Virus record (IMG/VR): IMGVR_UViG_3300028591_000074
Span: 1-64,000 of that record
Length of the DNA: 64,000 nt
Reading direction: 5' to 3' (one strand)
Source of the DNA: a virus
Lineage: Duplodnaviria; Caudoviricetes
Position 1 is the stretch's first letter. The number at the start of each line of letters is the position of its first letter. A program made the position numbers and the translations under genes. This document shows, one piece after another, positions 3,684-20,412 of this stretch. The notes under the pieces are model-generated. The model saw only the letters and a list, made by a program, of their open reading frames with translations. It had not been told where the DNA came from and made no database searches.

Positions 3684-3688
3684 TTATC

Positions 3689-5859: not shown

Positions 5860-5896
5860 ATATCGTCTCCTTACTTTAGAATTCTAGAACAACTAC

Positions 5897-6409
5897 TCAA
5901 TCCTCATAAATAGAATCTATTATGTTGCACTGGAACATTATCTCTTTAGCCCAGTTACGAATCTGCTTCACATCTGAAGTAGTCTGATTTGGTACACATT
6001 TCTGAATAGATTTCTTGATAGCATCTGTCAGTTCATCAATCCGTCTGTATGCAACAATGTGTGCAGAAGTCAGATTCGTTGACGCATCATGTAATTCTTT
6101 ATCGTGCAAAAGTTTATCTTGCTGTACAAACCAACTATTTCCAATAGTGTCTTTTGGTTTACCAACATAAAATATAGTTACCAAAAAATCATTCTTTTCA
6201 GAATCAAATCTGCAAATGGCACCGAGTTCACCAGATGAAAGAAGACGTAAGTTATCACCGTCGCAAGCAATGATTATATGTCCACATTCACAACCTACAG
6301 TAATTGAATCGTTCTTTTGTTCAGAATATATGTAAGTTTCTTCCGGAAAAATCTCATTACAACCAGTTACAAAAAGATTTCTAGATGTATTATTTCGAAT
6401 TAGCATCAA
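5897..6409 (-). CDS. hypothetical protein
   Basis: ORF track. Confidence 0.65.
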   Translation of the reverse strand: MMLIRNNTSRNLFVTGCNEIFPEETYIYSEQKNDSITVGCECGHIIIACDGDNLRLLSSGELGAICRFDSEKNDFLVTIFYVGKPKDTIGNSWFVQQDKLLHDKELHDASTNLTSAHIVAYRRIDELTDAIKKSIQKCVPNQTTSDVKQIRNWAKEIMFQCNIIDSIYED

Positions 6410-6421
6410 ATCACCACCTTA

Positions 6422-6799
6422 CTAAAATTCAACATCAATGCTGAAAGAAAATGTACAATCACCGGAAACATATCCGTAATTATCATATTCTTCTAAGACC
6501 TCTAGTAGCTTACACTTCGAACAAGCACAATAGTTTTCATAACGATCACACTCGCTATCAACATGGTCATCGGAACAATTCTTGCCAGTATGCTTAAATA
6601 ATGGAAGAATGATGTCGCGGTGTTCTGCAATGTGGCGAACTAAATCATCGGACTCTTCCTGTTTCAAATTTTGTAGATCATTATGCAATTCTGCAATAGT
6701 TGCAGATATAGAATCCATTGTCTTTTCATGATATTTCGTCAATTGGATTTTCTTACCTACCAATTCATCAATCTGCTTGCGAATTTCATTTTCTGTCAT
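6422..6799 (-). CDS. hypothetical protein (coiled coil + Cys cluster)
   Basis: ORF track, GAGGT SD. Confidence 0.7.
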   Translation of the reverse strand: MTENEIRKQIDELVGKKIQLTKYHEKTMDSISATIAELHNDLQNLKQEESDDLVRHIAEHRDIILPLFKHTGKNCSDDHVDSECDRYENYCACSKCKLLEVLEEYDNYGYVSGDCTFSFSIDVEF

Positions 6800-6812
6800 G
6801 ACCTCACCTACC

Positions 6813-7874
6813 TCAAAATATTATATCAGAATCGTCAATTTTTGTATTTTTCAGATACTTTTCCGTGTATAATACTCCCCAATTTGCTTTCATCAGGAAC
6901 TCATCAATTCGATTGTAATCCGGTTTTGGTGGAAGTACGGAATGTTCTTTTGCATGTTCCAATCTGGATTCATAATCGTGAACCATATCAAAGAATTCCT
7001 TTGTAGGCTTCCCATCTTCACCAAGATACTTACCGTTTCGAATATCCATGAGCAAATCATGTTCTTTCTCACGATAAGTTACAATCTTACCATCAAGTAA
7101 CAAATCTTCACACATCATATAAAGACGAAGCAGATGCATAGAATGTTTTGCAATCTTACCATGTGCAAGTGCATGATCATTCCGCTTACTGTTCTTATTA
7201 TACTCACGTATAACTGTATTAAGGGAATTAAGTACAGATGCAAGATCTTCTGCCGGATAATCTTCTACATTAAGATCAAGAACAATCTTACCATCTTTCA
7301 GCTTCACATCTACATCATGAATGTTGTGCTGATATTCTAAGGTATCATGCATACCATTCAAAGTTTTTACAATGTGTGCATTATATTCTTCTTCAGACAT
7401 TGCAACCAGTGATTTCTGCTGAAGCCGATACATCTGCTGATTTGCGTATCCCATAAATGATCCGATACATTTATTAGACAAGAACATATCGTAGTTGTTC
7501 AGGAGATCTACGCCCAAGGAACTCATATACAAGTAGTGTTCTGGTTTTAACCCTAGCATCTCAATTACATTAGGGTTGCAGTTAGTAAGCAGACTAACCA
7601 CTTTCTTCAGTGAGTAAATCGTTGTGTCTGTTGGTTCATTACAAACCTGCTCAAATCCCCTATTAAGTAAAATATCCAGTGCAGAATTCAATGCTATCCC
7701 TCGAATATCAACATCTGAGGTTTCAATATTTGTACCGTAGGCGTAAGAACCGCCGAGTCCAACAAGAATAGGATCATGCAATTCCGGAGTTGTATCTAAA
7801 AATTCATACGGAGATTCATCAACAGAAATATTTAGTTTCCTCAGAGAACCTATTACATATTCTTTAAGTTTCAT
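6813..7874 (-). CDS. Pol-beta superfamily nucleotidyltransferase (RNA-repair associated, RlaP-like)
   Basis: GGSYAYG...SDVDIRG catalytic motif, NPNVIEML, KHSMHLLRL; overlaps Pnkp-like gene. Confidence 0.82.
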   Translation of the reverse strand: MKLKEYVIGSLRKLNISVDESPYEFLDTTPELHDPILVGLGGSYAYGTNIETSDVDIRGIALNSALDILLNRGFEQVCNEPTDTTIYSLKKVVSLLTNCNPNVIEMLGLKPEHYLYMSSLGVDLLNNYDMFLSNKCIGSFMGYANQQMYRLQQKSLVAMSEEEYNAHIVKTLNGMHDTLEYQHNIHDVDVKLKDGKIVLDLNVEDYPAEDLASVLNSLNTVIREYNKNSKRNDHALAHGKIAKHSMHLLRLYMMCEDLLLDGKIVTYREKEHDLLMDIRNGKYLGEDGKPTKEFFDMVHDYESRLEHAKEHSVLPPKPDYNRIDEFLMKANWGVLYTEKYLKNTKIDDSDIIF

Positions 7875-10089
7875 CTTTCACCTCCGTAGTCTTCATGTAT
7901 TTGTAAAACTCATTTCTCAAGTAAATGATATCTCTTGGTATCAAGTCTCTCTGCTCTCTTGTTTCCGCATCATTGTATAACTTCTGACAGAACGAATAGA
8001 ACATGTTAGCTTCGGGAGTAGTAAGTGACCCAGTTCTCCGGAAATATCCAGATCTAAGAACTTCATGTGCTACACCCCTCATAAATTTCCAAAAGTTGTA
8101 GTACTGAAGTTTTATCTTAACCATTTTACCTTCTGCATCTTCTATAACAAAACCCTCAATGATTTTTCCGTTGTATTCATAACACTCAGAAGTTACTTCG
8201 TTATACCAATCAACAAAATCACCCCAGTTAGCAATCTCAAATGCCTTTTCTTTGACCTTAATCTTGAGTGCAGATCCGATATTCAGAAGATTTTCGTAAG
8301 GAATCTGCTCAAACTTCATTGTGTTTTTCACTATAGTGAGTAAAAACAGTTCTGATTTTGGATACTCAATAACATGAGGATCATTCTTCATATCTACACA
8401 TTCAAAAACAAATGAAACATCCTTGTCCTTACATATTTCTTTCATCCTATCTCTAGAAGGTTCAGACATTTTAGAGAACAGCATATTTTTGAATAGTTCG
8501 GCATAGTTTCCTGTAGGATTAGATTTTGTAGTTATGAAAAGATCGTCATTATCTGCATCATAGGATACAATTCCGAGGAACCCATTTTCCTTGACATAAC
8601 AAGTTACAGGAAAATTCAATGAATACTTCAACATGTCGAACTTTGTTTCCAGCATTTCGTTGATATTGAAGAACTTATCATATGCCCGAGCAGCAACTTT
8701 CATACGTAACATGTCAATATAAAGGCCTCTTGCCTTTACTGTCTGCTCGTTCCAAACCTTGTCATAGAAAGCATCTCGTGTGAAATTGAATGAGGAAATA
8801 TTGCCGAACTGCTTCTCAGTTACATGCTTGTTTGCTCGCAGAGCTAACACCACATCTGCAATGCTACTGATGTTGAGTTCAGTCTGTGTAGCAATTTTCT
8901 CAGGTTCTTTAAAAACATTGTTTTTGATCTCAACTTCATTAAACCCATTATGTGTCAGTTCGAGAATCCGGAGATGTCCACCAAACTCAACATCATTCTC
9001 AAGATCATAAACTCGGCCTCTAAGTTTCATAGGAGAAGCCTTTGTGTTTCTGTGTCCAAAAATCTGATACTGAGAATCTGAAGTAGTTCTCATCCAGGAA
9101 TCTGCTACAGTTTCGTAATCGTCATAATTACCAACACCTTTAATCATCTGCTCTGTGGACATGAAGCTCAAGTTATCCGGAAGTGCTGCAATACCTGCAT
9201 GAGATACAAATACATCCTTATTATCATACTTGTACCATGCACACTGTCCCAACTTGCGATACAGCTGACGAATCGCTTTTACATCAACATGTGCTTCCTC
9301 AAGCTGCTTCCGAGTAACCAGTTCGAATTCTTTGGACCTTCCTACTCCACCATGTGCATAGATCCAAAGCCATCTTTCATGGTTGCCTTCGAGAACAAGT
9401 ACATTCTTCTTGTTAATAATCTGAGTGAACCAATTTACAACTTCAACATTCTCAATTCCGCGATCAATCAAATCGCCTACGAAGATGTACATTGTGTTGT
9501 CATCAAGTCCATCTTTGAAATACTCCATAAGTGCTGTATAGCAACCATGGATATCTCCAACATGCACAACCTTATCATAACTTGAAAAATCAACCTGACG
9601 CATCCAAATAGTATCAAGCTCCTCAGGCTTGATCACCTTTACACCGGAAGGAATCTTCTGAGTACCAAATCTTGAATACATCTTATCAATGACATACTCC
9701 GGAACCTGCTTGAGTACAGGTCTAGATGCATTCCGTCGCTTACACTCTTCGATAGGAAGATCTGTCATGTCAATACAGAAAATTCGGTAACGATAGGTAT
9801 CGCACATCTCTTTGTAACGGTTGATTTCAACTGTCTTAGAGTTTGTAGCATCAATAACAGTGAATTCACCATTACGCATACGAATCTCCAAAAGTTTGAA
9901 AAGCATGTTCCAAACATCCTTTTCATTCTTCTGACTGATCTCTACCCTGCCATCTGCGGTCTGCTGTGCTGACTGACACTGAAGCCGAATTTCATCAGCT
10001 GAAAGTGCATAAGGACGCAATCCATTCTGATCGATGAATGTTGATTTTCCGCACCCAGGTGCTCCTCTAAATAACAAAAGTATTCTCAT
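7864..10089 (-). CDS. Pnkp-like RNA repair enzyme: polynucleotide kinase + metallophosphoesterase + RNA ligase
   Basis: GAPGCGKS P-loop; GDIHG/GDLIDRG/GNHE phosphoesterase; KENG and EGFVI...KIK ligase motifs. Confidence 0.88.
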   Translation of the reverse strand: MRILLLFRGAPGCGKSTFIDQNGLRPYALSADEIRLQCQSAQQTADGRVEISQKNEKDVWNMLFKLLEIRMRNGEFTVIDATNSKTVEINRYKEMCDTYRYRIFCIDMTDLPIEECKRRNASRPVLKQVPEYVIDKMYSRFGTQKIPSGVKVIKPEELDTIWMRQVDFSSYDKVVHVGDIHGCYTALMEYFKDGLDDNTMYIFVGDLIDRGIENVEVVNWFTQIINKKNVLVLEGNHERWLWIYAHGGVGRSKEFELVTRKQLEEAHVDVKAIRQLYRKLGQCAWYKYDNKDVFVSHAGIAALPDNLSFMSTEQMIKGVGNYDDYETVADSWMRTTSDSQYQIFGHRNTKASPMKLRGRVYDLENDVEFGGHLRILELTHNGFNEVEIKNNVFKEPEKIATQTELNISSIADVVLALRANKHVTEKQFGNISSFNFTRDAFYDKVWNEQTVKARGLYIDMLRMKVAARAYDKFFNINEMLETKFDMLKYSLNFPVTCYVKENGFLGIVSYDADNDDLFITTKSNPTGNYAELFKNMLFSKMSEPSRDRMKEICKDKDVSFVFECVDMKNDPHVIEYPKSELFLLTIVKNTMKFEQIPYENLLNIGSALKIKVKEKAFEIANWGDFVDWYNEVTSECYEYNGKIIEGFVIEDAEGKMVKIKLQYYNFWKFMRGVAHEVLRSGYFRRTGSLTTPEANMFYSFCQKLYNDAETREQRDLIPRDIIYLRNEFYKYMKTTEVKDET

Positions 10090-10143
10090 AGTCCTAACCC
10101 TCCTTTTGGATACTTGATACTTATTCCTTACAAGTATAAGTAT

Positions 10144-10167
10144 ATACTAATATGTATAAAAAGTCAA
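10144..10167 (-). promoter_or_regulatory. sigma-A type promoter for tRNA-repair operon (approximate bounds)
   Basis: TTGACT-17-TATACT. Confidence 0.7.
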
Positions 10168-10215
10168 TACACAAAATAAAAAATATTTTTACAAGATTCT
10201 TTCACGGATGACTTC

Positions 10216-10515
10216 CTACATGTTTTTCAACTCTTCTTGTATTTCTGTGTACCTTCTATCAAGAACTTCGCTGATTGCTGATTTCAGCTGCGCACGAGTT
10301 ATATCATCAAGATGGACAAAACTCAATTCGTAGTAATCTGATCCTATAGAGTTATAACAAAATCCACTATCAGTGATTCGATACCACTTGCCAAATTTTT
10401 TCACTTTGCCATACATTTTAGGATACGGATATCCAATACATTTGATCCGCAGATTCCATATTGTATCTATTGAATCCTTCAGATTGTTTGCGTATTCTAA
10501 TCTTTCCTCAGTCAT
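10216..10515 (-). CDS. hypothetical protein
   Basis: ORF track. Confidence 0.7.
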   Translation of the reverse strand: MTEERLEYANNLKDSIDTIWNLRIKCIGYPYPKMYGKVKKFGKWYRITDSGFCYNSIGSDYYELSFVHLDDITRAQLKSAISEVLDRRYTEIQEELKNM

Positions 10516-10575
10516 ATCTATTCCCCTACAAATTTATAATTGACACTTACATATATCATAACGATTTAGTAAACT

Positions 10576-10606
10576 AAAAATCCGGCACAGGCGATTCTGT
10601 GCCGGA
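10576..10606 (-). terminator. intrinsic terminator
   Basis: TCCGGCACAG/CTGTGCCGGA hairpin + T-tract. Confidence 0.8.
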
Positions 10607-10758
10607 CATATTAAGTTAGTATATCTCAAATGCCTTGGTTTTCGGCATTGGATATCAAAATTACTTCTTATCTTTCTTTCCATCATCTTAAACAGATTGC
10701 AATTTATCTGTTTCCTTTAGATATATCTGATTCTGTTACTGTATACGTTTATGCACTA

Positions 10759-11049
10759 CTATCTGCCTTTAACATATCCATCGTCATCAATGTTATCAAC
10801 TAACGTAGTACCTCTAGCACTGTAACTTAATAATATAGTTTCGATCTTGTACCCACCATTTTTCTTAGCATACTGAACAGCTGCAAGCCATGCACCTTCG
10901 CTAGTATCATAGTCATGATCATCAAACACAGCTAAGATATACCCAGCACGATCAAACACAATATAGTTGGTTGTAGTAGTATCGCCAATATAAAACGAAT
11001 ACTTATCAACTAAATCCCTTTCTGCACTAGATTTTACATATTTCTTCAT
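10759..11049 (-). CDS. hypothetical protein with MKKYVKSS motif
   Basis: Start moved to 11049 behind GGAGG SD. Confidence 0.75.
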   Translation of the reverse strand: MKKYVKSSAERDLVDKYSFYIGDTTTTNYIVFDRAGYILAVFDDHDYDTSEGAWLAAVQYAKKNGGYKIETILLSYSARGTTLVDNIDDDGYVKGR

Positions 11050-11186
11050 TTCTTTTTCTCCTCCCATCCGCTTAACCGGATAGCAATACCTTGTTTCTGT
11101 GCTTTCTTCTTAGCATCTTTACCATAGTATATCTTTCCGGTTTTACCCCATCGGTATCCACCGGATTTTGTTTTGTGTACTGGCAT
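11046..11186 (-). CDS. small basic protein (46 aa, MPVHKTKSGGYRWGKTGKIY...)
   Basis: Below ORF-track cutoff; GAGGT SD, coupled to next ORF (ATGA overlap). Confidence 0.7.
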   Translation of the reverse strand: MPVHKTKSGGYRWGKTGKIYYGKDAKKKAQKQGIAIRLSGWEEKKK

Positions 11187-11202
11187 AGTTGTTTACCTCA
11201 AA

Positions 11203-11523
11203 TCAATAAGATATTGTATCCACATACTCGCCACATTCCGGACATCGACCATCCTCTTCAAGAGGTATAGCACATCTTGGACAAAATGTTTGTCGATCAG
11301 AATCTTTCGGAAGTATGCTGGATCTATCATTAGCAATCTGTGCGTTTACAGATGTCACATAATAATGTGGATACATCTCTCTGGCCCGGTACTTTGCATT
11401 ATTACAAGCTTTGGCTTCAGTATCGGCAGTTGTTTCTATGTATGTTTCCAAGAAATCTTGATGTTCATAATCTGCAAGTCTTACAGTACATAAATAAGTT
11501 GCGGATCTTATGTATCTCTTCAT
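11203..11523 (-). CDS. hypothetical protein, MKRYIRSA motif and C-terminal Zn ribbon
   Basis: CPRC...CPEC; GAGGTG SD. Confidence 0.75.
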   Translation of the reverse strand: MKRYIRSATYLCTVRLADYEHQDFLETYIETTADTEAKACNNAKYRAREMYPHYYVTSVNAQIANDRSSILPKDSDRQTFCPRCAIPLEEDGRCPECGEYVDTISY

Positions 11524-11531
11524 AAAACACC

Positions 11532-11848
11532 TCACTCAAAATTCGCCCTAAAATGTACATAAAATACATCATCTACACAATCATTTTCTGCATCTACCAT
11601 ATAGATGTCTTTTAAATCCGGTATATACTGCACACAATCTTCTACGAAGTTTGATAAATCCTGGAAGTAATCTTCCCAATCGCCATTCCCGTTTAATCCC
11701 CCCATAGGGAAAATTCTACAAAGGTTTTACCGAAGCGTTCTACTTCATTAAAAGATAGATTTGTGTCAGGATAATCTCTTTTAGATAAAACGGTGTTTAT
11801 ATCAGATTCAAAATTATTTTCTTTTGAACATTTTATGTAGCGTTTCAT
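11532..11848 (-). pseudogene. MKRYIKCS-motif gene frameshifted at a G6 tract
   Basis: Frame stops at 11693 but coding continues (GLNGNGDWEDYF...) to 11532 if one G is added at 11698-11703. Confidence 0.65.
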
Positions 11849-11881
11849 ATCAATCCTCCGGATTGTACAATTCATAGATTA

Positions 11882-12172
11882 TTATCGTTTCTCTAAAACT
11901 AAAATATCATCTGAGTATATGCCAATTTGATGCAAATTTCCTGAATTATCAAAATAATGTAAAAAGAACAAATCATCAGAATATGTAGGTCTACTTACCC
12001 AACCAAATCCACCAAAACACTTATCATCAACACAAACATTGTACTTTACGGTATCATAACTATCGGACTGATACTTTCTCTTATCACTAATACTCATTCT
12101 AAAATATCTATAAACAGTTTTGGTTAAGGTATCAGTACCTTCATATTCAGATGCTCTCACATATAACTTCAT
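11882..12172 (-). CDS. hypothetical protein with MKLYVRAS motif
   Basis: ORF track, AAGGAG SD. Confidence 0.75.
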   Translation of the reverse strand: MKLYVRASEYEGTDTLTKTVYRYFRMSISDKRKYQSDSYDTVKYNVCVDDKCFGGFGWVSRPTYSDDLFFLHYFDNSGNLHQIGIYSDDILVLEKR

Positions 12173-12193
12173 AATTTAATTCTCCTTAATCTA

Positions 12194-12466
12194 TTATGAA
12201 TCGTTTGTCTGGATATTACCATCATACTTACTGAGTATCCCACGCAAAATCTCGGCATGATTCAATTCATCAGATATTATCTCTCGGATATGATCTATCG
12301 ATTCTCGATCATTATGTAGTTCAAAGAATGGAATCAACTTACCATATCCTTATATAGCATCCCACCCTCCTTGCAGATTCAATGCAATCTGAGATGCCGT
12401 GGTAAACTTATTGTCATTATCTAATACTATTGCAATATTAAAAGACGATTTAATATATCGTTTCAT
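12194..12466 (-). pseudogene. ferritin-like small protein (MKRYIKSS motif) with internal TAA
   Basis: ...WDAI*GY...IISDELNHAEIL...; in-frame TAA at 12350-12352. Confidence 0.65.
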
Positions 12467-12578
12467 AAAATATACCGAAACCCTTCTAAATGATTGTAAG
12501 CAGACTTATATTTATATTAAAGGTTTTCTAAATATTATAACGAAAAGTCGGTAGCAATTATACTACCGACTTAAATGT

Positions 12579-13142
12579 TTAATCCTTATCACCTAAAATA
12601 GATTCCAAATGATTGATAATTGTTTCGGATGAATGTCCGTTACGTTTTGCATCTTCTATATATCCACGAATATTCATCAATGTCGAAAAATCTCGTAAGA
12701 TTTCCTGCAAGGTTTTATATTGACAGCAAATATTATTATATCTGACATAATCATCCGGTTGATATTGTTTACAAACTTCATAAATAGGTATATCAGACAT
12801 AGTATCAGATTCCTTTTTGATATATTCCTGTGGTTTTACCATATCATTGAACTCGACAGAAATTATCTTATTGGATAATTCAGATTTAATCTGTTCCCGA
12901 ATTTCATCCTTTAAACTAAAGTTGTACTTAAGATATCTTTCAACCCATTCACCAATATAACTACCTGATGATGTCTGTGAATCAAGGTGCTTAAATACCT
13001 GTTCAATAGCACGTTCAACTTTATTTGTGATTTCCTTTTCTACTATATCCTTGATTGATTTTTGGTTCAACCCTGCATCTGCTAAAAGTTGACTAATTTG
13101 TAATCTCAATTCCCGTTTTTCTTCATTATACATTTTCATCAC
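12579..13142 (-). CDS. hypothetical protein
   Basis: ORF track; terminator hairpin 12545-12572 downstream. Confidence 0.7.
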   Translation of the reverse strand: MMKMYNEEKRELRLQISQLLADAGLNQKSIKDIVEKEITNKVERAIEQVFKHLDSQTSSGSYIGEWVERYLKYNFSLKDEIREQIKSELSNKIISVEFNDMVKPQEYIKKESDTMSDIPIYEVCKQYQPDDYVRYNNICCQYKTLQEILRDFSTLMNIRGYIEDAKRNGHSSETIINHLESILGDKD

Positions 13143-13199
13143 CTACCAATTCTTTATAAACTTTGAGAAATTCGTTTTAAATGATTTTATAACGAATTT

Positions 13200-13637
13200 C
13201 TAATCATCACTAATTATTAGCCAACAAAACTCACCAAGATGCGATGAAAGTTCTGAATCAATATTATGACCACCAACGGTGAACTGTTCAAGATCAAGTC
13301 CAGTAATAGTCCATTCGGAATATCCTACATAATCAAGTTGAAGTTTCAATTCACCAGATATATCTGAACAACCTCCAAAGGTTTTAAACAAAAATTCTGT
13401 TTGAACTTGATCCAAAGTACATTCTTTGTCTGAATAGAAGATAGAAACTGCGATTTTCGGCAGATAAGTTATTTTCTGTCCAAGTCCTTTGTTATACCGC
13501 TGATATCCGAAAGTTTTCTGAATGGAATCCGGTATGGATTCTATCCTATAACTAGGATCATCATCATGTTCCGCTAAACCTATAACATCATCGCAATCTT
13601 TATGTAGCCAACCATGCAATTCTAATCTCATTTTCAA
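13200..13637 (-). CDS. hypothetical protein
   Basis: ORF track, AGGAGG SD. Confidence 0.7.
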   Translation of the reverse strand: MKMRLELHGWLHKDCDDVIGLAEHDDDPSYRIESIPDSIQKTFGYQRYNKGLGQKITYLPKIAVSIFYSDKECTLDQVQTEFLFKTFGGCSDISGELKLQLDYVGYSEWTITGLDLEQFTVGGHNIDSELSSHLGEFCWLIISDD

Positions 13638-13744
13638 TTTCCTCCTACAGTTTATAACGATTTATCAAATTAAAAAATCAGCATACCAAATATGGTATGC
13701 TGATTATATAATTATACTTAAATCAAACTACAAACCGCATCAAC

Positions 13745-14719
13745 TTATTCATCATAATCATCTATCAGATAGCCATTCTCAGATGCATCATCATAGACTG
13801 AATAAAGGTATTCTCGTTCATAGATATCTGGATCAAGAGCCTGAGAAAACTTATACATTACATACATAGCAACCTTACGATCTAAATCATCACTTTCGAT
13901 GAATTCTGCTTTCGTATATGGCATACTACTAATGAATCCCGGATGACTTCCAAACTTATTTTCTGTATAATCAAAGAATGTGTCATCAATTTCAGATTCC
14001 ATAATTTCTACAATATTAGAAGGAACATCAAAACTGAAATCAATCCAATCAGTACTATAATTGTAGAATTGTGGGCTTTCAAACTTATCTACAGTCAGAT
14101 TGCTATATGGAATTCCAATATCGTCTAATGCTTCCTTGATATAATCATAGGCTTTATCCACCATCAACTGCTTGAACTCATCCCACATATCTTCATCGAC
14201 TTCATATTGAAATTCGGTACCATAAGTATCTGGAATGATAATCGGGCAAATATCAGTATTCAGATGTATTCTTACAGAACCACCATTAGAATCTGCGCAA
14301 ATATCTGTAGAAGATTCAATAGAATCTGACGTAATCATATCATAAAATGGCTGCCAATATCTAAGTAATTTATCAACACAGGAATCTACGTCATTCGGAT
14401 CAATTTCAATTTCTGTATCGATAACCTTATCAGTTCCAACTTCTACTGGAAGTTTCCAATCACTGTAATTATCTGGCAGCCCATATTTACCATAATCCGG
14501 TGCAACTGCAACCTTACCCATCAATGTACCATCTACCCAGGAAAATACTGCACCATAAACATCACCAAGATACTTACCTAAATAAGCATAATATGTATCA
14601 CCGAATTTAGGGTTTTCACCAGTCCCAATAGCACTATCAATGCAACTATATAGTCTATCCCTGATGACATTTGGGATAGAATTGCACAGTACTTTTGTAG
14701 TTTTAATATATCTTTTCAT
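13745..14719 (-). CDS. acidic two-domain protein with MKRYIKTT motif (putative virion protein)
   Basis: AGGAG SD, AACCTTTAAT upstream, terminator 13673-13704 downstream. Confidence 0.8.
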   Translation of the reverse strand: MKRYIKTTKVLCNSIPNVIRDRLYSCIDSAIGTGENPKFGDTYYAYLGKYLGDVYGAVFSWVDGTLMGKVAVAPDYGKYGLPDNYSDWKLPVEVGTDKVIDTEIEIDPNDVDSCVDKLLRYWQPFYDMITSDSIESSTDICADSNGGSVRIHLNTDICPIIIPDTYGTEFQYEVDEDMWDEFKQLMVDKAYDYIKEALDDIGIPYSNLTVDKFESPQFYNYSTDWIDFSFDVPSNIVEIMESEIDDTFFDYTENKFGSHPGFISSMPYTKAEFIESDDLDRKVAMYVMYKFSQALDPDIYEREYLYSVYDDASENGYLIDDYDE

Positions 14720-14763
14720 AAACAGTCTCCTATAAATGAGTTATATAGATATTAAAGGTTAAG

Positions 14764-14964
14764 TCAATCACAGGAACTCCCCTCATAATACTCACACATA
14801 TATTTACCATCCATCTCATATACAGTACAACTGTATACACCATACCCACAAAGTTGTGAATCAGTAAATATCTTTTTCTTATCTTCGGGAGTCACGTACC
14901 CGCGATTCTCCATAGCATGATCGTAAATTTCCTTACTGATTTCTTTATGGCAACAATTCAACAT
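14764..14964 (-). CDS. hypothetical protein
   Basis: start MLNCC behind GGGGG SD. Confidence 0.65.
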   Translation of the reverse strand: MLNCCHKEISKEIYDHAMENRGYVTPEDKKKIFTDSQLCGYGVYSCTVYEMDGKYMCEYYEGSSCD

Positions 14965-14977
14965 ATTTATTCCCCCC

Positions 14978-15208
14978 TTATAGATCACTGTTTAACATAC
15001 CATGTTCTTTCAACATACGAATTGCTTCTGAAATCATGACTTCCTGCAAATCTGTAGCAAGATAGGTAATAAATGTACCTGACGCATCCGTATGTAAGGT
15101 ATACCTACCATCAATGAGTACACCAGCTTCACCAAGTACGGACATAATCGGTACAATCGGTGTTGTTATTTTAATTTTCAGTTTTCGCGTCCTGAAGAAC
15201 ATATCCAT
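14978..15208 (-). CDS. hypothetical protein
   Basis: start MDMFF behind GAGGTG SD. Confidence 0.65.
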   Translation of the reverse strand: MDMFFRTRKLKIKITTPIVPIMSVLGEAGVLIDGRYTLHTDASGTFITYLATDLQEVMISEAIRMLKEHGMLNSDL

Positions 15209-15212
15209 GAAC

Positions 15213-15587
15213 TCACCTCGTCTCCGGATAAAATCCCATAATTGCATAATACCGATTCTTATATCTTTCATGAACTGATCTACTTGCATACATCTTATAG
15301 TAGTCATACATATCTTCCGGCAGAGCATCAATAGAATCCACTTCCGGAATCTCTTCAATGTCACCATGGTACTTGAGATAACCTCTGCCAGTTCTTTGTA
15401 CACGAAGATCCTGCCTATAAATATTCCACATAGTTGCAGGAATAGACCAATCCATATCATCAATATATCCTACTGACTTTAATACATCCCGAATGAACTG
15501 GTTTGTTGTGTTAAGTTCCTTGCGAATATCTTTAATAGATACCCCATCTTCAAACAATTCAATGATTCGTCTTTCTTTCTCATACAT
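15213..15587 (-). CDS. putative HTH DNA-binding protein
   Basis: start MYEKERR behind AAGGAGG; GVSIKDIRKELN HTH-like. Confidence 0.6.
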   Translation of the reverse strand: MYEKERRIIELFEDGVSIKDIRKELNTTNQFIRDVLKSVGYIDDMDWSIPATMWNIYRQDLRVQRTGRGYLKYHGDIEEIPEVDSIDALPEDMYDYYKMYASRSVHERYKNRYYAIMGFYPETR

Positions 15588-15690
15588 AATACTATCCTCC
15601 TTGAAATGGAATTTATTGTAACTACATAGTATCATACATACTGTGACAAATTTGTAAATATAAAATTTATAAATAGGAGAACTTTGTACA

Positions 15691-16059
15691 TTAAAATGTA
15701 AGTGCATCCTTGATAGACTGCAGCTTGTTCCGGTAAGTATCACGATCATGCTCAATTTCAGCGATAATCTGTTTCAACCGGAATACTTCATTTCTATATT
15801 CGTTTGCAAGGTTCTGATTATAATTCCGGCTATCTGTCATAACCTGCAAATCCTTGCTAACATCTGCCAATGTCCTTTCAAGTTCTTCTGCATGTTTCCT
15901 ACGAACATTTGCATACCGGATAATGCCGCCATCGCGTTTCCACTTGGCACACCACTTATCCTTGTCAAGATCACTCTCCATATATTGAGATTCAATTTCC
16001 TTGTACTCTTCAGCAGTAGGATCAAACCCTGTTCTCTCGATAAATTCACTTCTCATCAT
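15691..16059 (-). CDS. hypothetical coiled-coil protein
   Basis: ORF track, GGAGG SD. Confidence 0.75.
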   Translation of the reverse strand: MMRSEFIERTGFDPTAEEYKEIESQYMESDLDKDKWCAKWKRDGGIIRYANVRRKHAEELERTLADVSKDLQVMTDSRNYNQNLANEYRNEVFRLKQIIAEIEHDRDTYRNKLQSIKDALTF

Positions 16060-16073
16060 AGTAGTAACCCTCC

Positions 16074-16223
16074 TTATACATTATAAACTCTACAATTATC
16101 AGGATTAGCAATCCACTTGCCAATTCTCGGATTTTCAATTACCAGATATCCATCGGGTCTAACTTCACGGACAATTGCCAAATAATCCATGTTTATCACA
16201 TACATACCTACTGAAAACTTCAT
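16074..16223 (-). CDS. small hypothetical protein (49 aa)
   Basis: GGAGG SD, MKFSVGMYV...; TTGACA-17-TATACT promoter upstream. Confidence 0.6.
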   Translation of the reverse strand: MKFSVGMYVINMDYLAIVREVRPDGYLVIENPRIGKWIANPDNCRVYNV

Positions 16224-16312
16224 AATGTTTACCTCCATATTGTGTTTTCCTCTATCTGTATATAAGTATATACTATAATATCACATATGTCAACATATTT
16301 TTTATAAAATAT

Positions 16313-16350
16313 AAAAAAAATCTGTGATGATATACAACCATCACAGATTC
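16313..16350 (-). terminator. terminator ending tRNA array
   Basis: AATCTGTGATG/CATCACAGATT hairpin + T-tract. Confidence 0.85.
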
Positions 16351-16354
16351 TTAC

Positions 16355-16443
16355 CGCCTACGGACAGACTCGAACTGCCACACCGGATTTCCGATTACTC
16401 AGAGATTAGCAATCTCCTGCCTTCCCATTAGGCTTACATAGGC
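16355..16443 (-). tRNA. tRNA-Ser(GCT)
   Basis: GGAGA-TTGCTAA-TCTCT arm, long variable arm. Confidence 0.9.
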
Positions 16444-16450
16444 AATATAG

Positions 16451-16539
16451 TGGGCCGGGTAGGATTCGGACCTACAATGTTTACCACATGGGTGACGGAT
16501 TTACAGTCCGCTGACTTCACCAATTTGTCGCACCGACCC
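16451..16539 (-). tRNA. tRNA-Tyr(GTA)
   Basis: GCGGA-CTGTAAA-TCCGT arm. Confidence 0.9.
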
Positions 16540-16544
16540 ATAAT

Positions 16545-16631
16545 CGCCGTGGCAGAGAATCGAACTCTGGCTTCCATAACAAGGAAGGACTGTTTTCAGG
16601 ACAGTGTAGTGAGCCAACCACAATCCACGGC
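16545..16631 (-). tRNA. tRNA-Ser(TGA), atypical (C33, A8)
   Basis: ACTGT-CCTGAAA-ACAGT arm, long variable arm, G73. Confidence 0.75.
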
Positions 16632-16656
16632 ATTTATACAACTTATTTTGAGAAAT

Positions 16657-16728
16657 GGTGACTACTGGGAATCGAACCCAGATCAATGGAATCACAATCC
16701 ACTGTATTAACCATTGTACTATAGTCAC
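16657..16728 (-). tRNA. tRNA-His(GTG)
   Basis: GTGGA-TTGTGAT-TCCAT arm; C73; no encoded G-1. Confidence 0.9.
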
Positions 16729-16730
16729 AG

Positions 16731-16804
16731 TAGTCGCAGTGGGAATCGAACCCTACATCTCCGGATTGAAAGCCCGGTGTCGTAAACCATTTGACTATGC
16801 GACC
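16731..16804 (-). tRNA. tRNA-Glu(TTC)
   Basis: CCGGG-CTTTCAA-TCCGG arm. Confidence 0.9.
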
Positions 16805-16811
16805 ATTATGA

Positions 16812-17036
16812 TTAAATTGATTTCCTTATGATAATATCATCTATTGCTACACCAAAGGCATCAGCAAGGATTACCATGTTATCTATGGTTGGCATGGAAT
16901 CACCACGGAACCACTTGAATATTGCCTGCGGAGTACCGAACCCGAAGATACCTTGAACATCAGATGTTTTCATATTCTTAGACTTCATGATATTCTTTAT
17001 ATTTGTTCCAGTTGCTACTGTATCTATTACCATCAT
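16812..17036 (-). CDS. XRE-family HTH transcriptional regulator
   Basis: TPQAIFKWFRGDSMPTIDNMVILA; start at 17036 behind AAAGGGG. Confidence 0.85.
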   Translation of the reverse strand: MMVIDTVATGTNIKNIMKSKNMKTSDVQGIFGFGTPQAIFKWFRGDSMPTIDNMVILADAFGVAIDDIIIRKSI

Positions 17037-17066
17037 GATGCTATATCCCCTTTCAGTAATTTTGAG

Positions 17067-17142
17067 TACCCACGATGGGATTTGAACCCACACCATATAC
17101 ATACTTTAAATATGTTGCTTCTTCCTATTGCGCTACGTGGGC
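17067..17142 (-). tRNA. tRNA-Leu(TAA), short variable arm
   Basis: ACATA-TTTAAAG-TATGT arm, A73. Confidence 0.8.
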
Positions 17143-17147
17143 AGATA

Positions 17148-17236
17148 TGCCGGATAAGGGACTCGAACCCTTATGAGAGTTTTATACCTCAGTAGATTTT
17201 GAATCTACCATGTCTAACCAATTTCATCAATCCGGC
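17148..17236 (-). tRNA. tRNA-Leu(CAA)
   Basis: GTAGA-TTCAAAA-TCTAC arm, long variable arm. Confidence 0.9.
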
Positions 17237-17242
17237 AAATAG

Positions 17243-17317
17243 TACCCCCGGCAGGAATCGAACCTGCATATCTACTGATCCTAAGTCAGTCGCCTTTACC
17301 AGTTTGACCACGAGGGC
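17243..17317 (-). tRNA. tRNA-Leu(TAG), short variable arm
   Basis: ACTGA-CTTAGGA-TCAGT arm. Confidence 0.88.
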
Positions 17318-17321
17318 ATAG

Positions 17322-17359
17322 AAAAAGACCATCTATACGCTGTGTACAGATGGTCTTTT
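17322..17359 (-). terminator. attenuator terminator A
   Basis: AAAGACCATCTGTAC-ACAGC-GTATAGATGGTCTTTTT. Confidence 0.85.
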
Positions 17360-17395
17360 AGTTCTTCTGAAGAGTATATTTCAATAGATGAACTA

Positions 17396-17497
17396 TCAAA
17401 TCTTACCATTATCTGCACACGCAAATTGGAAAGCCAATGATGAATAGAGGCTTTCGGAAAGTTCGCTATGCAGATATAATGATCTGAATGTAGTCAT
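17396..17497 (-). CDS. leader peptide A (MTTFRSLYLHSELSESLYSSLAFQFACADNGKI)
   Basis: AAAGGGG SD; 16-residue run only of S/L/Y/H/E; followed by terminator. Confidence 0.85.
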   Translation of the reverse strand: MTTFRSLYLHSELSESLYSSLAFQFACADNGKI

Positions 17498-17525
17498 CGC
17501 TGTTACCCCTTTATTTGATAATTCG

Positions 17526-17554
17526 ATTATAATATAAATTCTTATAAATTGCAA
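17526..17554 (-). promoter_or_regulatory. sigma-A type promoter for tRNA block A
   Basis: TTGCAA-17-TATAAT. Confidence 0.75.
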
Positions 17555-17573
17555 CTATACTATTGGTATATTT

Positions 17574-17611
17574 CAAGTTAGTTGCAAGTTAGTTGCAAGT
17601 TAGTTGCAAGT
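17574..17611. repeat. 11-bp tandem repeat (CAAGTTAGTTG) x3.4
   Basis: direct reading. Confidence 0.9.
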
Positions 17612-17684
17612 ACAGACGGAGAGATTCGAACTCTCAACCAAAGGCTTAGAAGACCTTTGCGCTGATCCATTGCGCCACGCCTGT
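17611..17684 (-). tRNA. tRNA-Arg(TCT)
   Basis: AAGGT-CTTCTAA-GCCTT arm. Confidence 0.9.
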
Positions 17685-17690
17685 ATGAAT

Positions 17691-17762
17691 CTCCCACGGC
17701 AGGACTCGAACCTGCAACCACTCGGTTAACAGCCGATTTCTCAACCATTGAGATACGTGGGA
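17691..17762 (-). tRNA. tRNA-Asn(GTT)
   Basis: TCGG-CTGTTAA-CCGA arm. Confidence 0.9.
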
Positions 17763-17767
17763 ATACA

Positions 17768-17837
17768 AGTACCGCATCAGAGTTGAACTGATCTCTATAG
17801 TTTTGCAGACTACATGCTTCCCGGAAGCAGACGGTAC
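17768..17837 (-). tRNA. tRNA-Cys(GCA)
   Basis: GTAGT-CTGCAAA-ACTAT arm, U73, short D loop. Confidence 0.82.
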
Positions 17838-17844
17838 ATTATAT

Positions 17845-17915
17845 CAGCCGATTCTGGAATTGAACCAAAATCTGATGAGTCAGAATCATCTGTGTTACCA
17901 TTACACCAATCGGCC
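17845..17915 (-). tRNA. tRNA-Gln(CTG)
   Basis: GATGA-TTCTGAC-TCATC arm. Confidence 0.9.
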
Positions 17916-17954
17916 ATGCAACTTATTTGTCCAACACGTACAGACAAGTTATAG

Positions 17955-18025
17955 CAGGTCCTGCACGTTTCGAGCGCACACCATCAAGGTTGGAGCTTGA
18001 TATGCTACCATTACACCAAGGACCC
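17955..18025 (-). tRNA. tRNA-Trp(CCA)
   Basis: TCAAG-CTCCAAC-CTTGA arm; T-loop CTCGAAA. Confidence 0.85.
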
Positions 18026-18033
18026 GGAGAAAG

Positions 18034-18106
18034 TGGATGTGGAGAGGTTTGAACTCTCGGCTTGATGCTTAAGAGGCAACTGCTCTTCCAACTGAGCTAC
18101 ACATCC
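18034..18106 (-). tRNA. tRNA-Lys(CTT)
   Basis: TGC-CTCTTAA-GCA arm. Confidence 0.88.
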
Positions 18107-18112
18107 ATATAC

Positions 18113-18173
18113 AGGACGCATTTTGGTTTCAATGATTAAAAGTCATTTCCAAAAGATTTGCTGTATGCGTCCC
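18113..18173 (-). ncRNA. armless tRNA-Lys(TTT)-like hairpin
   Basis: GGACGCA/TGCGTCC closing stem, TTTTGG/CCAAAA, AATGA-CTTTTAA-TCATT anticodon-like arm; no D/T arms. Confidence 0.55.
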
Positions 18174-18176
18174 AAA

Positions 18177-18248
18177 TGGGTGTGACAAGATTCGAACTTG
18201 CGGTATACAGGTTAAAAGCCTGTTGCCATACCACTTGGCTACACACCC
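18177..18248 (-). tRNA. tRNA-Lys(TTT)
   Basis: ACAGG-CTTTTAA-CCTGT arm. Confidence 0.9.
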
Positions 18249-18253
18249 AAAAA

Positions 18254-18327
18254 TTCAAGGTGGTGGATTCGAACCACCGGCAATCTGCGTATCAGACAGA
18301 CACTCTAACCAACTGAGTTAACCTTGA
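18254..18327 (-). tRNA. tRNA-Ile(GAT)
   Basis: TCTGT-CTGATAC-GCAGA arm. Confidence 0.9.
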
Positions 18328-18328
18328 G

Positions 18329-18400
18329 TGGTCTCGGATAGTTTCGGGCTATCGACACTCTGGGCTTCAACCAGATGCTCTTCCTCTGAGCTACGAGACC
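18329..18400 (-). tRNA. tRNA-Phe(GAA)
   Basis: TCTGG-TTGAAGC-CCAGA arm; T-loop CCCGAAA. Confidence 0.85.
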
Positions 18401-18406
18401 AAAATT

Positions 18407-18450
18407 AAAAAGCCATGAGGCTGATGCTGACTGTCAGACCCATGACTTTT
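18407..18450 (-). terminator. attenuator terminator B
   Basis: AGTCATGGGTCTGA...TCAGCCTCATGGCT-TTTT. Confidence 0.75.
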
Positions 18451-18486
18451 CTTCTCTATAAGGTATAAGATAGAAAATATGTTAGA

Positions 18487-18588
18487 TCATGTAAGACAGT
18501 CTATAGATTCAGCACAATTAAACCAGTTTTTATAACAAAACTGATTTCTAATGTTCTTAATCTGGTTGCTAATAGACTGATACATCAT
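18487..18588 (-). CDS. leader peptide B (MMYQSISNQIKNIRNQFCYKNWFNCAESIDCLT)
   Basis: AAGGAAAGGAG SD; N/Q/I/K/R/F/C/W core; followed by terminator. Confidence 0.85.
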   Translation of the reverse strand: MMYQSISNQIKNIRNQFCYKNWFNCAESIDCLT

Positions 18589-18620
18589 CTTCTTATTATC
18601 TCCTTTCCTTATAGATGTAG

Positions 18621-18693
18621 TTGCAGGGACCGGATTTGAACCGGCAACTTTCAGTTTATGAGACTGAACTGCTTACCATTGCATCACCCTGCG
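18621..18693 (-). tRNA. tRNA-Met(CAT), C1xA72 mismatch (initiator-like)
   Basis: TCAGT-CTCATAA-ACTGA arm. Confidence 0.85.
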
Positions 18694-18699
18694 ATAAAC

Positions 18700-18770
18700 T
18701 TGAAAATGTCAGATTCGAACTGCGCCTCATGCTCCCAAGGCAAGCGTGCTACCATTACACCACATTCTCA
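18700..18770 (-). tRNA. tRNA-Pro(TGG)
   Basis: TGC-CTTGGGA-GCA arm; ends approximate. Confidence 0.8.
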
Positions 18771-18778
18771 ATAATTAA

Positions 18779-18850
18779 CGATCTAGCAGAGAATCGAACT
18801 CTGATCTCCGGATAGACAGTCCGGTGTAATAGCCTTTATACCACAAGACC
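18779..18850 (-). tRNA. tRNA-Asp(GTC)
   Basis: CCGGA-CTGTCTA-TCCGG arm. Confidence 0.9.
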
Positions 18851-18854
18851 GTAT

Positions 18855-18925
18855 AGCTTCCACTCGGATTCGAACCAAGATTTACTGATTACAAATCAGT
18901 AGTCCTGCCATTAGACGATAGAAGC
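18855..18925 (-). tRNA. tRNA-Thr(TGT)
   Basis: ACTGA-TTTGTAA-TCAGT arm. Confidence 0.9.
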
Positions 18926-18930
18926 AGAAT

Positions 18931-19705
18931 ATTTGTCTTGAGATTACAGACAAACGTAACACTCATTAAAACCCTTATTTGTTAGGCTTATATCCACGTA
19001 CCTTTCAATACGTTAGTGCTATGCGTACCTTTAAGGTGGCTATACCTTCATAATTCAGAACTACTCGACCTACTTTTCGACCTTAAAAGAGTTGTACGGA
19101 CTCTCCTAATGTCTACTTGTTCGATCAAACAGGTTCACCTTGCGAGTTCCCCTGTTCCACATTACATTACTGCTGTGGACTTAACGCATTTTCATTCTGA
19201 ACCCCTACTGACTTTTGCTTTTTGGCGATTTTTGTTGGACTTGAACCAACTACCTTTTGTTTAGAAGACAAATACTCTACCCAATGAGCTAAAAAATCAG
19301 TATGTTGGATGTAGATGTGCAGTAGGTTTAGTTTCGTAATCTTTTGAACTACAAAATGCTAAACACCTACGATGTACGTTCCTTTGCATCGTACTTGTAC
19401 TGCCATTTCTGACTGGATATCACCCTTGTTTGCTAAACTCGGATTTATTACCCATTAAATGTCTAACTACCATATCCGTTTGTTTTGCATGTTAGTTAGC
19501 CCTTGCGGAGCCTTGTTCCCATCAGTTGACCTAAAACAAGTTTCTCACTAACCAAACAAATATAGCATTGAATCCACCTATGGTGAACTTAGATTCCTTT
19601 TCAGAATCTATTAAGACAAGTATTGCATACTCTTACCGTTTCCGGCGATAGGCTTACCTTCCTACCTTTCGATATATTACTATACCATATAGGCGTATGC
19701 ACCAT
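18931..19705 (-). ncRNA. large structured ncRNA, GOLLD-like, with embedded tRNA-Arg
   Basis: ~775 nt non-coding, many hairpins with GNRA-type loops (GCAA, GAAA), terminal TGTCTGTAATCTCAAGACA hairpin, inside tRNA array. Confidence 0.55.
19223..19298 (-). tRNA. tRNA-Arg(TCT), second copy, CCA encoded
   Basis: TTTGT-CTTCTAA-ACAAA arm; GATTTTT/AAAAATC-G-CCA. Confidence 0.85.
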
Positions 19706-19709
19706 TGTA

Positions 19710-19782
19710 AGCAGATAGTGAGAATCGAACTCACATCCTTAGTTTGGAAGACTAATATAATAAACCGTTATACGATACCTGC
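19710..19782 (-). tRNA. tRNA-Gly(TCC)
   Basis: TTAGT-CTTCCAA-ACTAA arm. Confidence 0.9.
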
Positions 19783-19854
19783 ATGTGCGAGTGAGAGAAG
19801 TGCCTGTTCCCCTCACTCAGATTTTAATTTTTTGTAATCAGTAGAAACTGATAG

Positions 19855-19926
19855 TAGACCATATAGGAGTCGAACCTATATCTCTTCATTCGTAGTGAAG
19901 TGTTCTATCCGTTATACTAATGATCT
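19855..19926 (-). tRNA. tRNA-Arg(ACG)
   Basis: CTTCA-CTACGAA-TGAAG arm. Confidence 0.9.
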
Positions 19927-19928
19927 AG

Positions 19929-20001
19929 TGCAGATAGTAGGGGTTGAACCTACAACCACTTCCTTGTAAGAGAAGCACTCTCCCAGTTGAGTTATATCTG
20001 C
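19929..20001 (-). tRNA. tRNA-Val(TAC)
   Basis: CTTCT-CTTACAA-GGAAG arm. Confidence 0.9.
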
Positions 20002-20007
20002 AAATAG

Positions 20008-20080
20008 TGGAACCGATGGGGATTGAACCCACAACCTTCTGCTTGCAAAACAGATGCTCTCCCAATTGCGCTACGGCCCC
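20008..20080 (-). tRNA. tRNA-Ala(TGC)
   Basis: TCTGT-TTTGCAA-GCAGA arm; G3:U70. Confidence 0.92.
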
Positions 20081-20160: not shown

Positions 20161-20331
20161 CTACCTTCGTCTATATCCTATGTACTTGGCGACTTTTCGA
20201 TTCCATCCAGTTCTTCCTGTGGCGATAGCATCTGGATCTACCGGGGCATCAAATTTGCATACGAAACTAAACCCGCGTGTTGCAGGATGATCCACGATCA
20301 TTGTGAAGTTGATAGTTTCGTAAATCTTCAT
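20161..20331 (-). CDS. leader peptide C (56 aa, MKIYETINFTMIVDHPATRG...DAPVDPDAIATGRTG...RRR)
   Basis: AGGAG SD before ATG 20331; rich in A/V/R/G/T/D/P/M; followed by terminator. Confidence 0.82.
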   Translation of the reverse strand: MKIYETINFTMIVDHPATRGFSFVCKFDAPVDPDAIATGRTGWNRKVAKYIGYRRR

Positions 20332-20412
20332 AATAATTCTCCTAAAAAATTTAGTGCCTATATCTCCATCCGATAACACAAAATGGAGAGACAGGCACTT
20401 CTCTCTGGTAGT

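Follow-up and report, generated by a model that had tools for sequence, protein, structure and literature searches.

The DNA analysed here, referred to as the window, is the first 64 kb (64,000 nucleotides) of a 253,527-base virus contig of 36% G+C, on which tail sheath and portal-type genes are encoded as in a myophage. An array of 26 tRNA genes lies on its minus strand (16354-20080), with a GOLLD RNA inside it (18935-19371), and is made up of three tRNA blocks, A, B and C, each preceded by a leader ORF. Leader A, of which no second copy was found elsewhere in the genome, occupies the gap between tRNA-Arg(TCT) (17610) and tRNA-Leu(TAG) (17317). It was compared in four lineages (L127, L130, L157 and L163), only about three of them independent. 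The relatives come from gut metagenomes, largely of ruminant type as judged from record names. Searches of INPHARED by blastn and tblastn returned only tRNA matches and one weak sheath match; no cultured close relative is therefore indicated. The parts of leader A and block A are as follows.

17526..17554, minus strand: promoter of the sigma-70/sigma-A type, TTGCAA-17-TATAAT; -35, spacing and -10 kept in L127, L130, L157 and L163
17506..17511, minus strand: Shine-Dalgarno sequence AAGGGG, 8 nt before the ATG; GAGG/AGGT-type sequence at the same place in relatives
17396..17497, minus strand: leader ORF A, ATG start, 33 codons plus TGA; 33 codons in the four lineages
17435..17482, minus strand: putative control region, 16 consecutive Leu/Ser/Tyr/His/Glu codons (codons 6-21), the subject of the composition tests
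17467..17483, minus strand: region 1, predicted to pair with region 2 in ribosome-free RNA; protector and probable pause hairpin
17405..17420, minus strand: region 2, last codons of ORF A, with region 1 or region 3 as predicted partner
17342..17359, minus strand: region 3, 5' arm of the terminator and antiterminator partner of region 2 (17342-17354 pairs with region 2)
17318..17359, minus strand: predicted intrinsic terminator 3:4, 16-bp stem, 5-nt loop and U tract, abutting the first tRNA
17242..17317, minus strand: tRNA-Leu(TAG), short variable loop
17147..17237, minus strand: tRNA-Leu(CAA)
17066..17142, minus strand: tRNA-Leu(TAA), short variable loop; miscalled Phe(AAA) by ARAGORN
16812..17036, minus strand: small Cro/C1-type HTH gene, probable start at 17036 after a Shine-Dalgarno sequence; absent from L130, L157 and L163
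16730..16804, minus strand: tRNA-Glu(TTC)
16657..16728, minus strand: tRNA-His(GTG)
16544..16632, minus strand: tRNA-Ser(TGA)
16450..16539, minus strand: tRNA-Tyr(GTA)
16354..16444, minus strand: tRNA-Ser(GCT)
16316..16352, minus strand: predicted intrinsic terminator closing block A

The initial annotation had proposed a TTGCAA-17-TATAAT promoter for the leader, and this assignment (17554-17526) is supported by the relatives: all four lineages retain the -35 hexamer at 17-nt spacing from a -10, together with a Shine-Dalgarno sequence and a length of exactly 33 codons, though a promoter scan alone stays at chance level for the region (48 sites vs 52.7 expected). A phage sigma-70 region 4 domain was looked for and not found. 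The terminator stem spans 17359-17323, with five U reaching 17322 and then CUAU, and the terminators of the relatives also have U-rich tails; the 3:4 terminator is not listed by a consensus terminator scan, probably because the U run is counted into the stem. The third tRNA of the block had been read as Leu(TAA), rightly, as a 5-bp stem with a 7-nt loop gives the anticodon TAA and its counterpart in L130 is called as Leu(TAA). The leader peptide matches no Pfam or PHROG family and is not expected to fold or to bind anything.

Just upstream of the leader A promoter stand three tandem 11-bp repeats (17577-17609, minus strand), each containing the -35 hexamer of the promoter; the repeat array is kept in L127 and L130, and its spacing of one helical turn suggests that the repeats may be protein-binding sites. 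Besides its own promoter, block A would have read-through from block B, no terminator being present after tRNA-Arg (17610).

Further from the leader, RNA repair genes are found near the array (4426-10089, minus strand): an AAA_33-Metallophos-T4 RNA ligase fusion, an RlaP nucleotidyltransferase, a nucleoside deoxyribosyltransferase-like gene and Thg1. The Pnk-phosphatase-RNA ligase fusion, RlaP and Thg1 genes lie 6-12 kb downstream. A HEARO RNA above the Rfam gathering score occurs at 40727-40963 (minus strand). The contig end (~236000-253527) repeats window positions 1-16920 at only 75-98% identity and in rearranged form; it carries a second Glu/His/Ser/Tyr/Ser tRNA set and a 91%-identical ligase and stops short of leader A. 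Two strains have probably been joined in the contig.

Codon composition of the leaders and their tRNA blocks

For the composition tests, the amino-acid set was fixed by the tRNAs of the block, independently of the ORF. The 16-codon run of Ser, Leu, Tyr, His and Glu claimed by the initial annotation is found at 17482-17435, as codons 6-21 of the 33-codon ORF, and does contain the five different Leu codons and the Ser codons of both boxes attributed to it. All five amino acids are already represented within codons 6-12. The set {L,S,Y,H,E} ranks first among all 15,504 five-residue sets and is the only one with a run of 16. No run elsewhere in the six genomic frames is as long, the second longest being 12, and in ORFs of at least 100 aa the maximum is 7. 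Stop-free nucleotide shuffles of the leader ORF never reach 16 (0/38,350, maximum 11), and none of 1,500 relabelled tRNA lists fits leader A as well, even with ORF choice and block length left free. It had further been held that the run samples codons as the downstream tRNAs do. This is exact for the amino acids and only partly so for the codons, 13 of the 16 being read under standard wobble, with CTT, CTC and TCC left over. Reading of these three needs extended wobble by U34.

The other two blocks of the array are preceded by leaders of the same kind.

18487..18588, minus strand: sister leader ORF B, 33 codons, before the Phe/Ile/Lys/Lys/Trp/Gln/Cys/Asn/Arg block
20161..20331, minus strand: sister leader ORF C, 56 codons, before the Ala/Val/Arg/Gly/Arg/Thr/Asp/Pro/Met block with the GOLLD RNA

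When each leader is compared with each block, its own block fits best for A, B and C alike. The best 15-codon window of leader A scores 15 with block A, 7 with block B and 5 with block C; leader B scores 14 with its own block, 4 with A and 3 with C; leader C scores 14 with its own, 3 with A and 9 with B. Relabelled tRNA lists do as well in 6 of 1,500 cases for leader B and in 87 of 1,500 for leader C, the weakest of the three. Each leader pools 3-8 amino acids, and together they cover all 20 in the window.

Several minor features accompany the sister leaders. In the region 18401-18620, leader B lies 32 nt after tRNA-Met and has no room for a promoter of its own, so that block B may be placed in series behind block C. 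A perfect 15-nt complement links the 5' end of the block C transcript (20391-20405) to the spacer after tRNA-Arg(ACG) (19793-19807), ~600 nt away; it is kept in L127 and L130, has one mismatch in L246, and long-range or feedback pairing is possible. Leader C coding sequence 20260-20273 is perfectly complementary over 14 nt to GOLLD RNA 19325-19338, a match only partly kept in relatives. Inside the GOLLD RNA sits a tRNA that is Arg(TCT) in this phage (19223-19298) and Gly(TCC) at the equivalent position of L130 (15634-15709).

The content of leader A changes with that of its block. L127/L029 (IMG/VR) is the closest relative, its leader being 98% identical and the peptide identical. L130 (ENA), whose tail sheath is 62% identical, shares the three-block layout of the array, and its block A is devoid of the Glu and His tRNAs and of the HTH gene; its leader core consists of 15 consecutive Ser/Leu/Tyr codons, without His or Glu. 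In L157 and L163, leader A and a Leu/Ser/Tyr block stand alone, directly after a DUF7487 gene, and the leader cores contain Ser, Leu and Tyr plus one Asp, with neither Glu/His codons in the leader nor Glu/His tRNAs in the block. The set {L,S,Y} ranks first of 1,140 three-residue sets in each of these three cores. The His/Glu difference between lineages represents a single evolutionary event, and no recognisable Asp tRNA in the block corresponds to the Asp codon of L157 and L163. In the sister leaders, Arg is lost from leader B of L130 together with tRNA-Arg(TCT), a Gln codon being kept without tRNA-Gln, and the leader C core of L246 has lost Asp, Pro and Arg with their tRNAs and kept Thr.

Between lineages, 11-15 of the 45 core bases differ. 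Among the 15 core codons, 6-7 change amino acid and 1-3 are synonymous, while 14-15 stay cognate; random bases at the same positions would remain that cognate with P 4e-5 to 2e-3. The flanks outside the core are not conserved. Selection is inferred to act on core composition, not on peptide sequence, because the mostly non-synonymous changes stay within the cognate set.

Some peculiarities of the relatives can be mentioned alongside. The stand-alone block contains two degenerate tRNA-like units with acceptor and T arms and odd anticodon arms, uncalled by ARAGORN (L157:8536-8682 and L163:8653-8800). In L163, Leu(CAG) and Leu(AAG) replace Leu(TAG) at the head of block A (7119-7289), and a LAGLIDADG-like ORF (within 7493-8605) is inserted where relatives have Leu(TAA); the Leu(CAG) and Tyr genes of this lineage were read by eye from the sequence. 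A leader C homolog of 47 codons with an Ala-rich core is found at L246:6882-7400, before a block of which an IS605-type insertion has left only Ala, Val and a fragment of Gly. No tRNA array was found near the anchor gene in the related phages L132, L134, L136, L145, L146, L242, L243 and L250-L254. A 15-nt pattern scan gave mostly chance matches and one real one (L029), and leader-specific patterns searched in viral contigs and GTDB genomes returned only L029 or nothing.

Alternative helices and ribosome position

The initial annotation had stated that segment 17405-17420 can pair in two ways, with the leader start or with a terminator arm. Both pairings are found, with 17467-17483 and with 17342-17354, and the helices are kept across relatives. 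Their conservation was scored on an alignment of five related sequences, too few for a real P value, so that covariation is supportive only. Helix 1:2 reaches 98% pairing and has one double-sided change, against at most 71% in slid controls; helix 2:3 is 98% paired with two double-sided changes (at most 54%), and helix 3:4 is 100% paired, also with two (at most 52%). In L157/L163, one substitution runs through regions 2, 3 and 4 together (columns 144/219/231), a joint change that a lone terminator would not require. The free RNA folds as 1:2 plus 3:4 in four lineages, with z = -7.8 for the window sequence. The outer part of this imperfect rod differs between lineages and only 1:2, 2:3 and 3:4 persist.

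The effect of a translating ribosome was examined in a nascent-RNA model with a footprint of -15/+13 and the RNA cut after region 3, under the assumption that RNA behind the ribosome is unavailable. In this model, the probability of 2:3 is 0.9 or more with codons 5-24 in the A site and falls to 0 from codon 25 to the stop. The positions that free 2:3 thus bracket the control codons 6-21, and the window of effective positions is nearly the same in all four lineages. Were region 1 free to pair again with region 2 in the wake of a ribosome stalled beyond codon 14-15, the effective stretch would shrink to codons 5-14. The final codons of leaders B and C likewise pair with a terminator's 5' arm, which is freed when a ribosome sits on the stop codon.

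Folded in isolation, 2:3 is the more stable helix (-23.3 vs -19.8 kcal/mol for 3:4). When the complete RNA is folded to equilibrium, however, 3:4 prevails wherever the ribosome is placed in the window sequence and in L157, and L130 comes close to this; real competition is seen in L163 alone, with 2:3 reaching up to 0.95. As the terminator wins at equilibrium, antitermination must be kinetic, with 2:3 forming first. If the host is a member of the Bacillota in which transcription and translation are loosely coupled, the switch would need a pause of RNA polymerase after 1:2 that synchronises it with the ribosome; the 1:2 hairpin for such a putative pause is present.

Proposed attenuation of block A and competing explanations

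The locus combines the elements expected of an attenuator: an ORF with a Shine-Dalgarno sequence between promoter and genes, a run of cognate codons beginning in region 1, mutually exclusive 1:2, 2:3 and 3:4 helices, a terminator before the genes and, in the model, a fitting ribosome geometry. Thermodynamic dominance of the antiterminator is not among them, the isolated folds favouring 2:3 and the full-length RNA favouring 3:4 in three of the four lineages. It had been read from the outset as a leader-peptide attenuator, and every testable sequence-level prediction of that reading (composition, tracking, 2:3 covariation and geometry) held, the mechanism itself being inferred. Block A is very probably under the control of a multivalent ribosome-mediated transcription attenuator; in the absence of expression, ribosome or 3'-end data, its translation, termination and regulation are inferences.

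In the proposed mechanism, a host-type RNA polymerase would start at the promoter and a ribosome would load on the 33-codon ORF, both steps being inferred from conserved signals. With an ample supply of charged Leu, Ser, Tyr, His and Glu tRNAs, the ribosome would reach the last codons and cover region 2, the 3:4 hairpin would form and transcription would stop just before tRNA-Leu(TAG). When any of those tRNAs is scarce, the ribosome would lag in codons 6-21 and cover region 1, so that region 2 could pair with region 3 while region 4 is still to be transcribed, and polymerase would continue into all eight tRNA genes. In untranslated RNA, 1:2 and 3:4 would form and the block would stay off. In the established attenuation model, fast decoding leads to termination and slow decoding to read-through, and in classical attenuators the untranslated RNA adopts 1:2 plus 3:4, the 'super-attenuated' state (PMC1183508). 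The products of block A are the same tRNAs that the leader would test, which would amount to negative feedback; the attenuator probably serves as a feedback on decoding capacity.

Its likeliest purpose, with ample room left for starvation or general homeostasis, is the replacement of tRNAs destroyed during infection, for instance by host anti-phage tRNases. The loss of tRNA is favoured as the trigger because extra tRNA would cure loss and not starvation (an inference), because genes for a kinase-phosphatase-RNA ligase fusion, RlaP and Thg1 lie close by, and because phage tRNA dosage is able to overcome a tRNA-depleting defence (PMC11555353). The same attenuator could nevertheless respond to amino-acid starvation or to a general slowing of ribosomes, by uncharged tRNA or by low translation capacity late in infection. 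This differs in purpose only and remains a serious, if not the preferred, version of the attenuator. Indeed, an attenuator responds to decoding speed, so that uncharged and missing tRNA look the same to it (PMC1183508); the pooling of amino acids until all 20 are covered by three leaders suits a broad signal, and three core codons are not read by block anticodons under standard wobble. On the other hand, more tRNA would be no remedy for a lack of amino acid (again an inference), RNA repair genes lie beside the array, and the contents of block and leader change together, tRNA by tRNA.

The reduced cassette found in two relatives bears on the kind of tRNA loss involved. Leu, Ser and Tyr constitute the bacterial set of tRNAs with a long variable arm (class II). 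The minimal Leu/Ser/Tyr cassette hints at a structure-specific threat, for which there is no direct support; in one study of a bacterial Schlafen, cleavage is reported mainly for tRNA-Lys, Ala and Met (PMC13056530). The short variable loops of tRNA-Leu(TAG) and tRNA-Leu(TAA), unusual for bacterial Leu tRNAs, are also seen in L130 and L157 and could evade a nuclease that reads the long arm, their charging by the host LeuRS being untested.

A translation-coupled switch with another logic or timing is unlikely: in it, a constitutive or developmental gate (slow leader initiation, or override by a phage antiterminator or HTH protein) would decide, and the codons would tune the basal level only. The dominance of the terminator at equilibrium is compatible with such a gate, and the 11-bp repeats upstream of the promoter, with the HTH gene in the block, hint at a second, protein-based control. 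However, selection for the exact cognate amino-acid set is then hard to explain, and the HTH gene is missing from three of the four lineages that keep the leader.

There is little chance that the transcript is an independent structured small RNA of ~200 nt, 6S-like or other, with its own promoter and terminator, an incidental ORF and tRNAs made from other promoters or by leak. The long imperfect rod followed by a terminator (z = -7.8) and the promoter would suit it, and phage tRNA arrays do host other non-coding RNAs, here GOLLD. A 6S-like RNA was even favoured initially from the fold; it was dropped after the Rfam search, the relatives and the nascent-RNA model. Rfam searched at the gathering score and at E up to 10 gave no T-box, 6S or SRP, only a chance miRNA match on the terminator hairpin (E 5.7). 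The outer rod, moreover, is not what the lineages preserve, and a small RNA leaves unexplained the conserved 33-codon frame with its Shine-Dalgarno sequence, the cognate composition, the tracking of the block and the covariation in helix 2:3, which is absent from the free fold. Least tenable is a function of the 33-residue peptide itself, as a small membrane or inhibitor peptide before a plain terminator: its length, start signal and frame are conserved and its Leu/Ser/Tyr-rich stretch could be helical, but most core substitutions alter the amino acid, conservation does not extend to the flanks, His and Glu enter the core exactly where those tRNAs are present, no family matches and the 2:3 covariation is unexplained.

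Known systems and leader-like ORFs in other phages

The thr and ilv leaders pool two or three amino acids, and leader A would work like these multivalent attenuators, not like an amino-acid operon attenuator in the narrow sense. The pheM leader of E. coli pheST is a leader-peptide attenuator that controls a part of the translation apparatus by the supply of charged tRNA; it reads one amino acid and governs a chromosomal synthetase gene, whereas leader A would read five and precedes tRNA genes in a phage. With the trp, his, leu, pheA, thr, ilvGMEDA and ilvBN attenuators of E. coli and Salmonella, leader A shares a short leader ORF with regulatory codons in region I, exclusive I:II, II:III and III:IV pairings, a stop codon just past region II, and the I:II plus III:IV state when untranslated (PMC1183508). 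Those amino-acid operon attenuators regulate enzymes, whereas leader A, which is phage-borne, would regulate eight tRNA genes and one HTH gene. Unlike them, it pools five amino acids, belongs to an array with three such units, and its output would remove the signal directly by supplying the decoding tRNA.

The nearest functional analogue is the tRNA L-array (trn operon) of Anabaena PCC 7120, which is mobile, TrcR-repressed, silent by default and induced when translation is impaired (PMC8421152, PMC10272220). Induction of a tRNA array by translational stress is what is proposed for leader A; in Anabaena, however, a protein repressor controls initiation for the whole array, neither attenuation nor a leader is mentioned, and there are no blocks with cognate sensors. 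Phage tRNA supplementation is similar in that phage tRNAs would restore decoding after the loss of host tRNAs. The tRNA-Tyr of T5/SP15 counters the PtuAB of retron-Eco7 in a dosage-dependent way, with supply driven by a strong promoter (PMC11555353), and phage tRNA-Lys counters PARIS (PMC11464382). No attenuation is reported for such supplementation (PMC11555353), whereas supply under leader A would be on demand. T-box riboswitches also choose between terminator and antiterminator by tRNA status, but they bind uncharged tRNA directly via a specifier codon without a translated ORF, and leader A matches no T-box model. An attenuator on tRNA genes was not found described in the literature within open-access scope, most subscription papers lying outside it, which is no proof of novelty.

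If the reading of leader A is correct, leader-peptide attenuation extends from enzymes to tRNA genes and to viruses, the sorting of such arrays by amino acid is explained by the leader design, and the leader offers a natural, recodable in vivo sensor of tRNA supply. What purpose tRNA genes serve in phages is a question that has stood for more than 50 years (PMC10264068). Steady expression is to be expected if they serve codon compensation, whereas replacement after depletion predicts expression on demand; a sensor tied to the decoding speed of its own tRNAs would favour the replacement view, and this can be tested with a 240-nt reporter. A wider proposal is offered tentatively, its chances falling a little short of even: many unrelated phages would sort their tRNA genes into blocks with cognate ribosome-read sensors, detect which host tRNAs have been destroyed by nucleases and resupply only that set, as an inducible counter-defence that needs no protein. 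The tRNA sets under attack could then be read off each leader, and the Leu/Ser/Tyr cassette, alone in two relatives and recurring in a 345-kb phage that is unrelated, would suggest a class of nucleases directed at the class II set.

A simple detector for cognate short ORFs before tRNA blocks was run on other loci. It found nothing in the arrays of L164, L179, L186, L204, L225, L235 and L240, and the leader design is therefore not universal. In the unrelated 345-kb phage (L166), a Ser/Leu/Tyr/Trp-rich short ORF precedes a Leu/Tyr/Leu/Ser/Ser/Trp/Leu block, and in the Caulobacter phage phiCbK (JX100813), cognate ORFs precede two tRNA blocks (gp083 and an ORF before tRNA-Phe). In both phages this concerns composition only, the RNA switch being unexamined; relabelled lists are as good in 2-3 of 1,500 cases. 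The phiCbK record annotates terminators at those two leader places. As phiCbK is cultured and its host Caulobacter is a model organism, its leader-like ORFs allow testing that does not depend on an uncultured phage.
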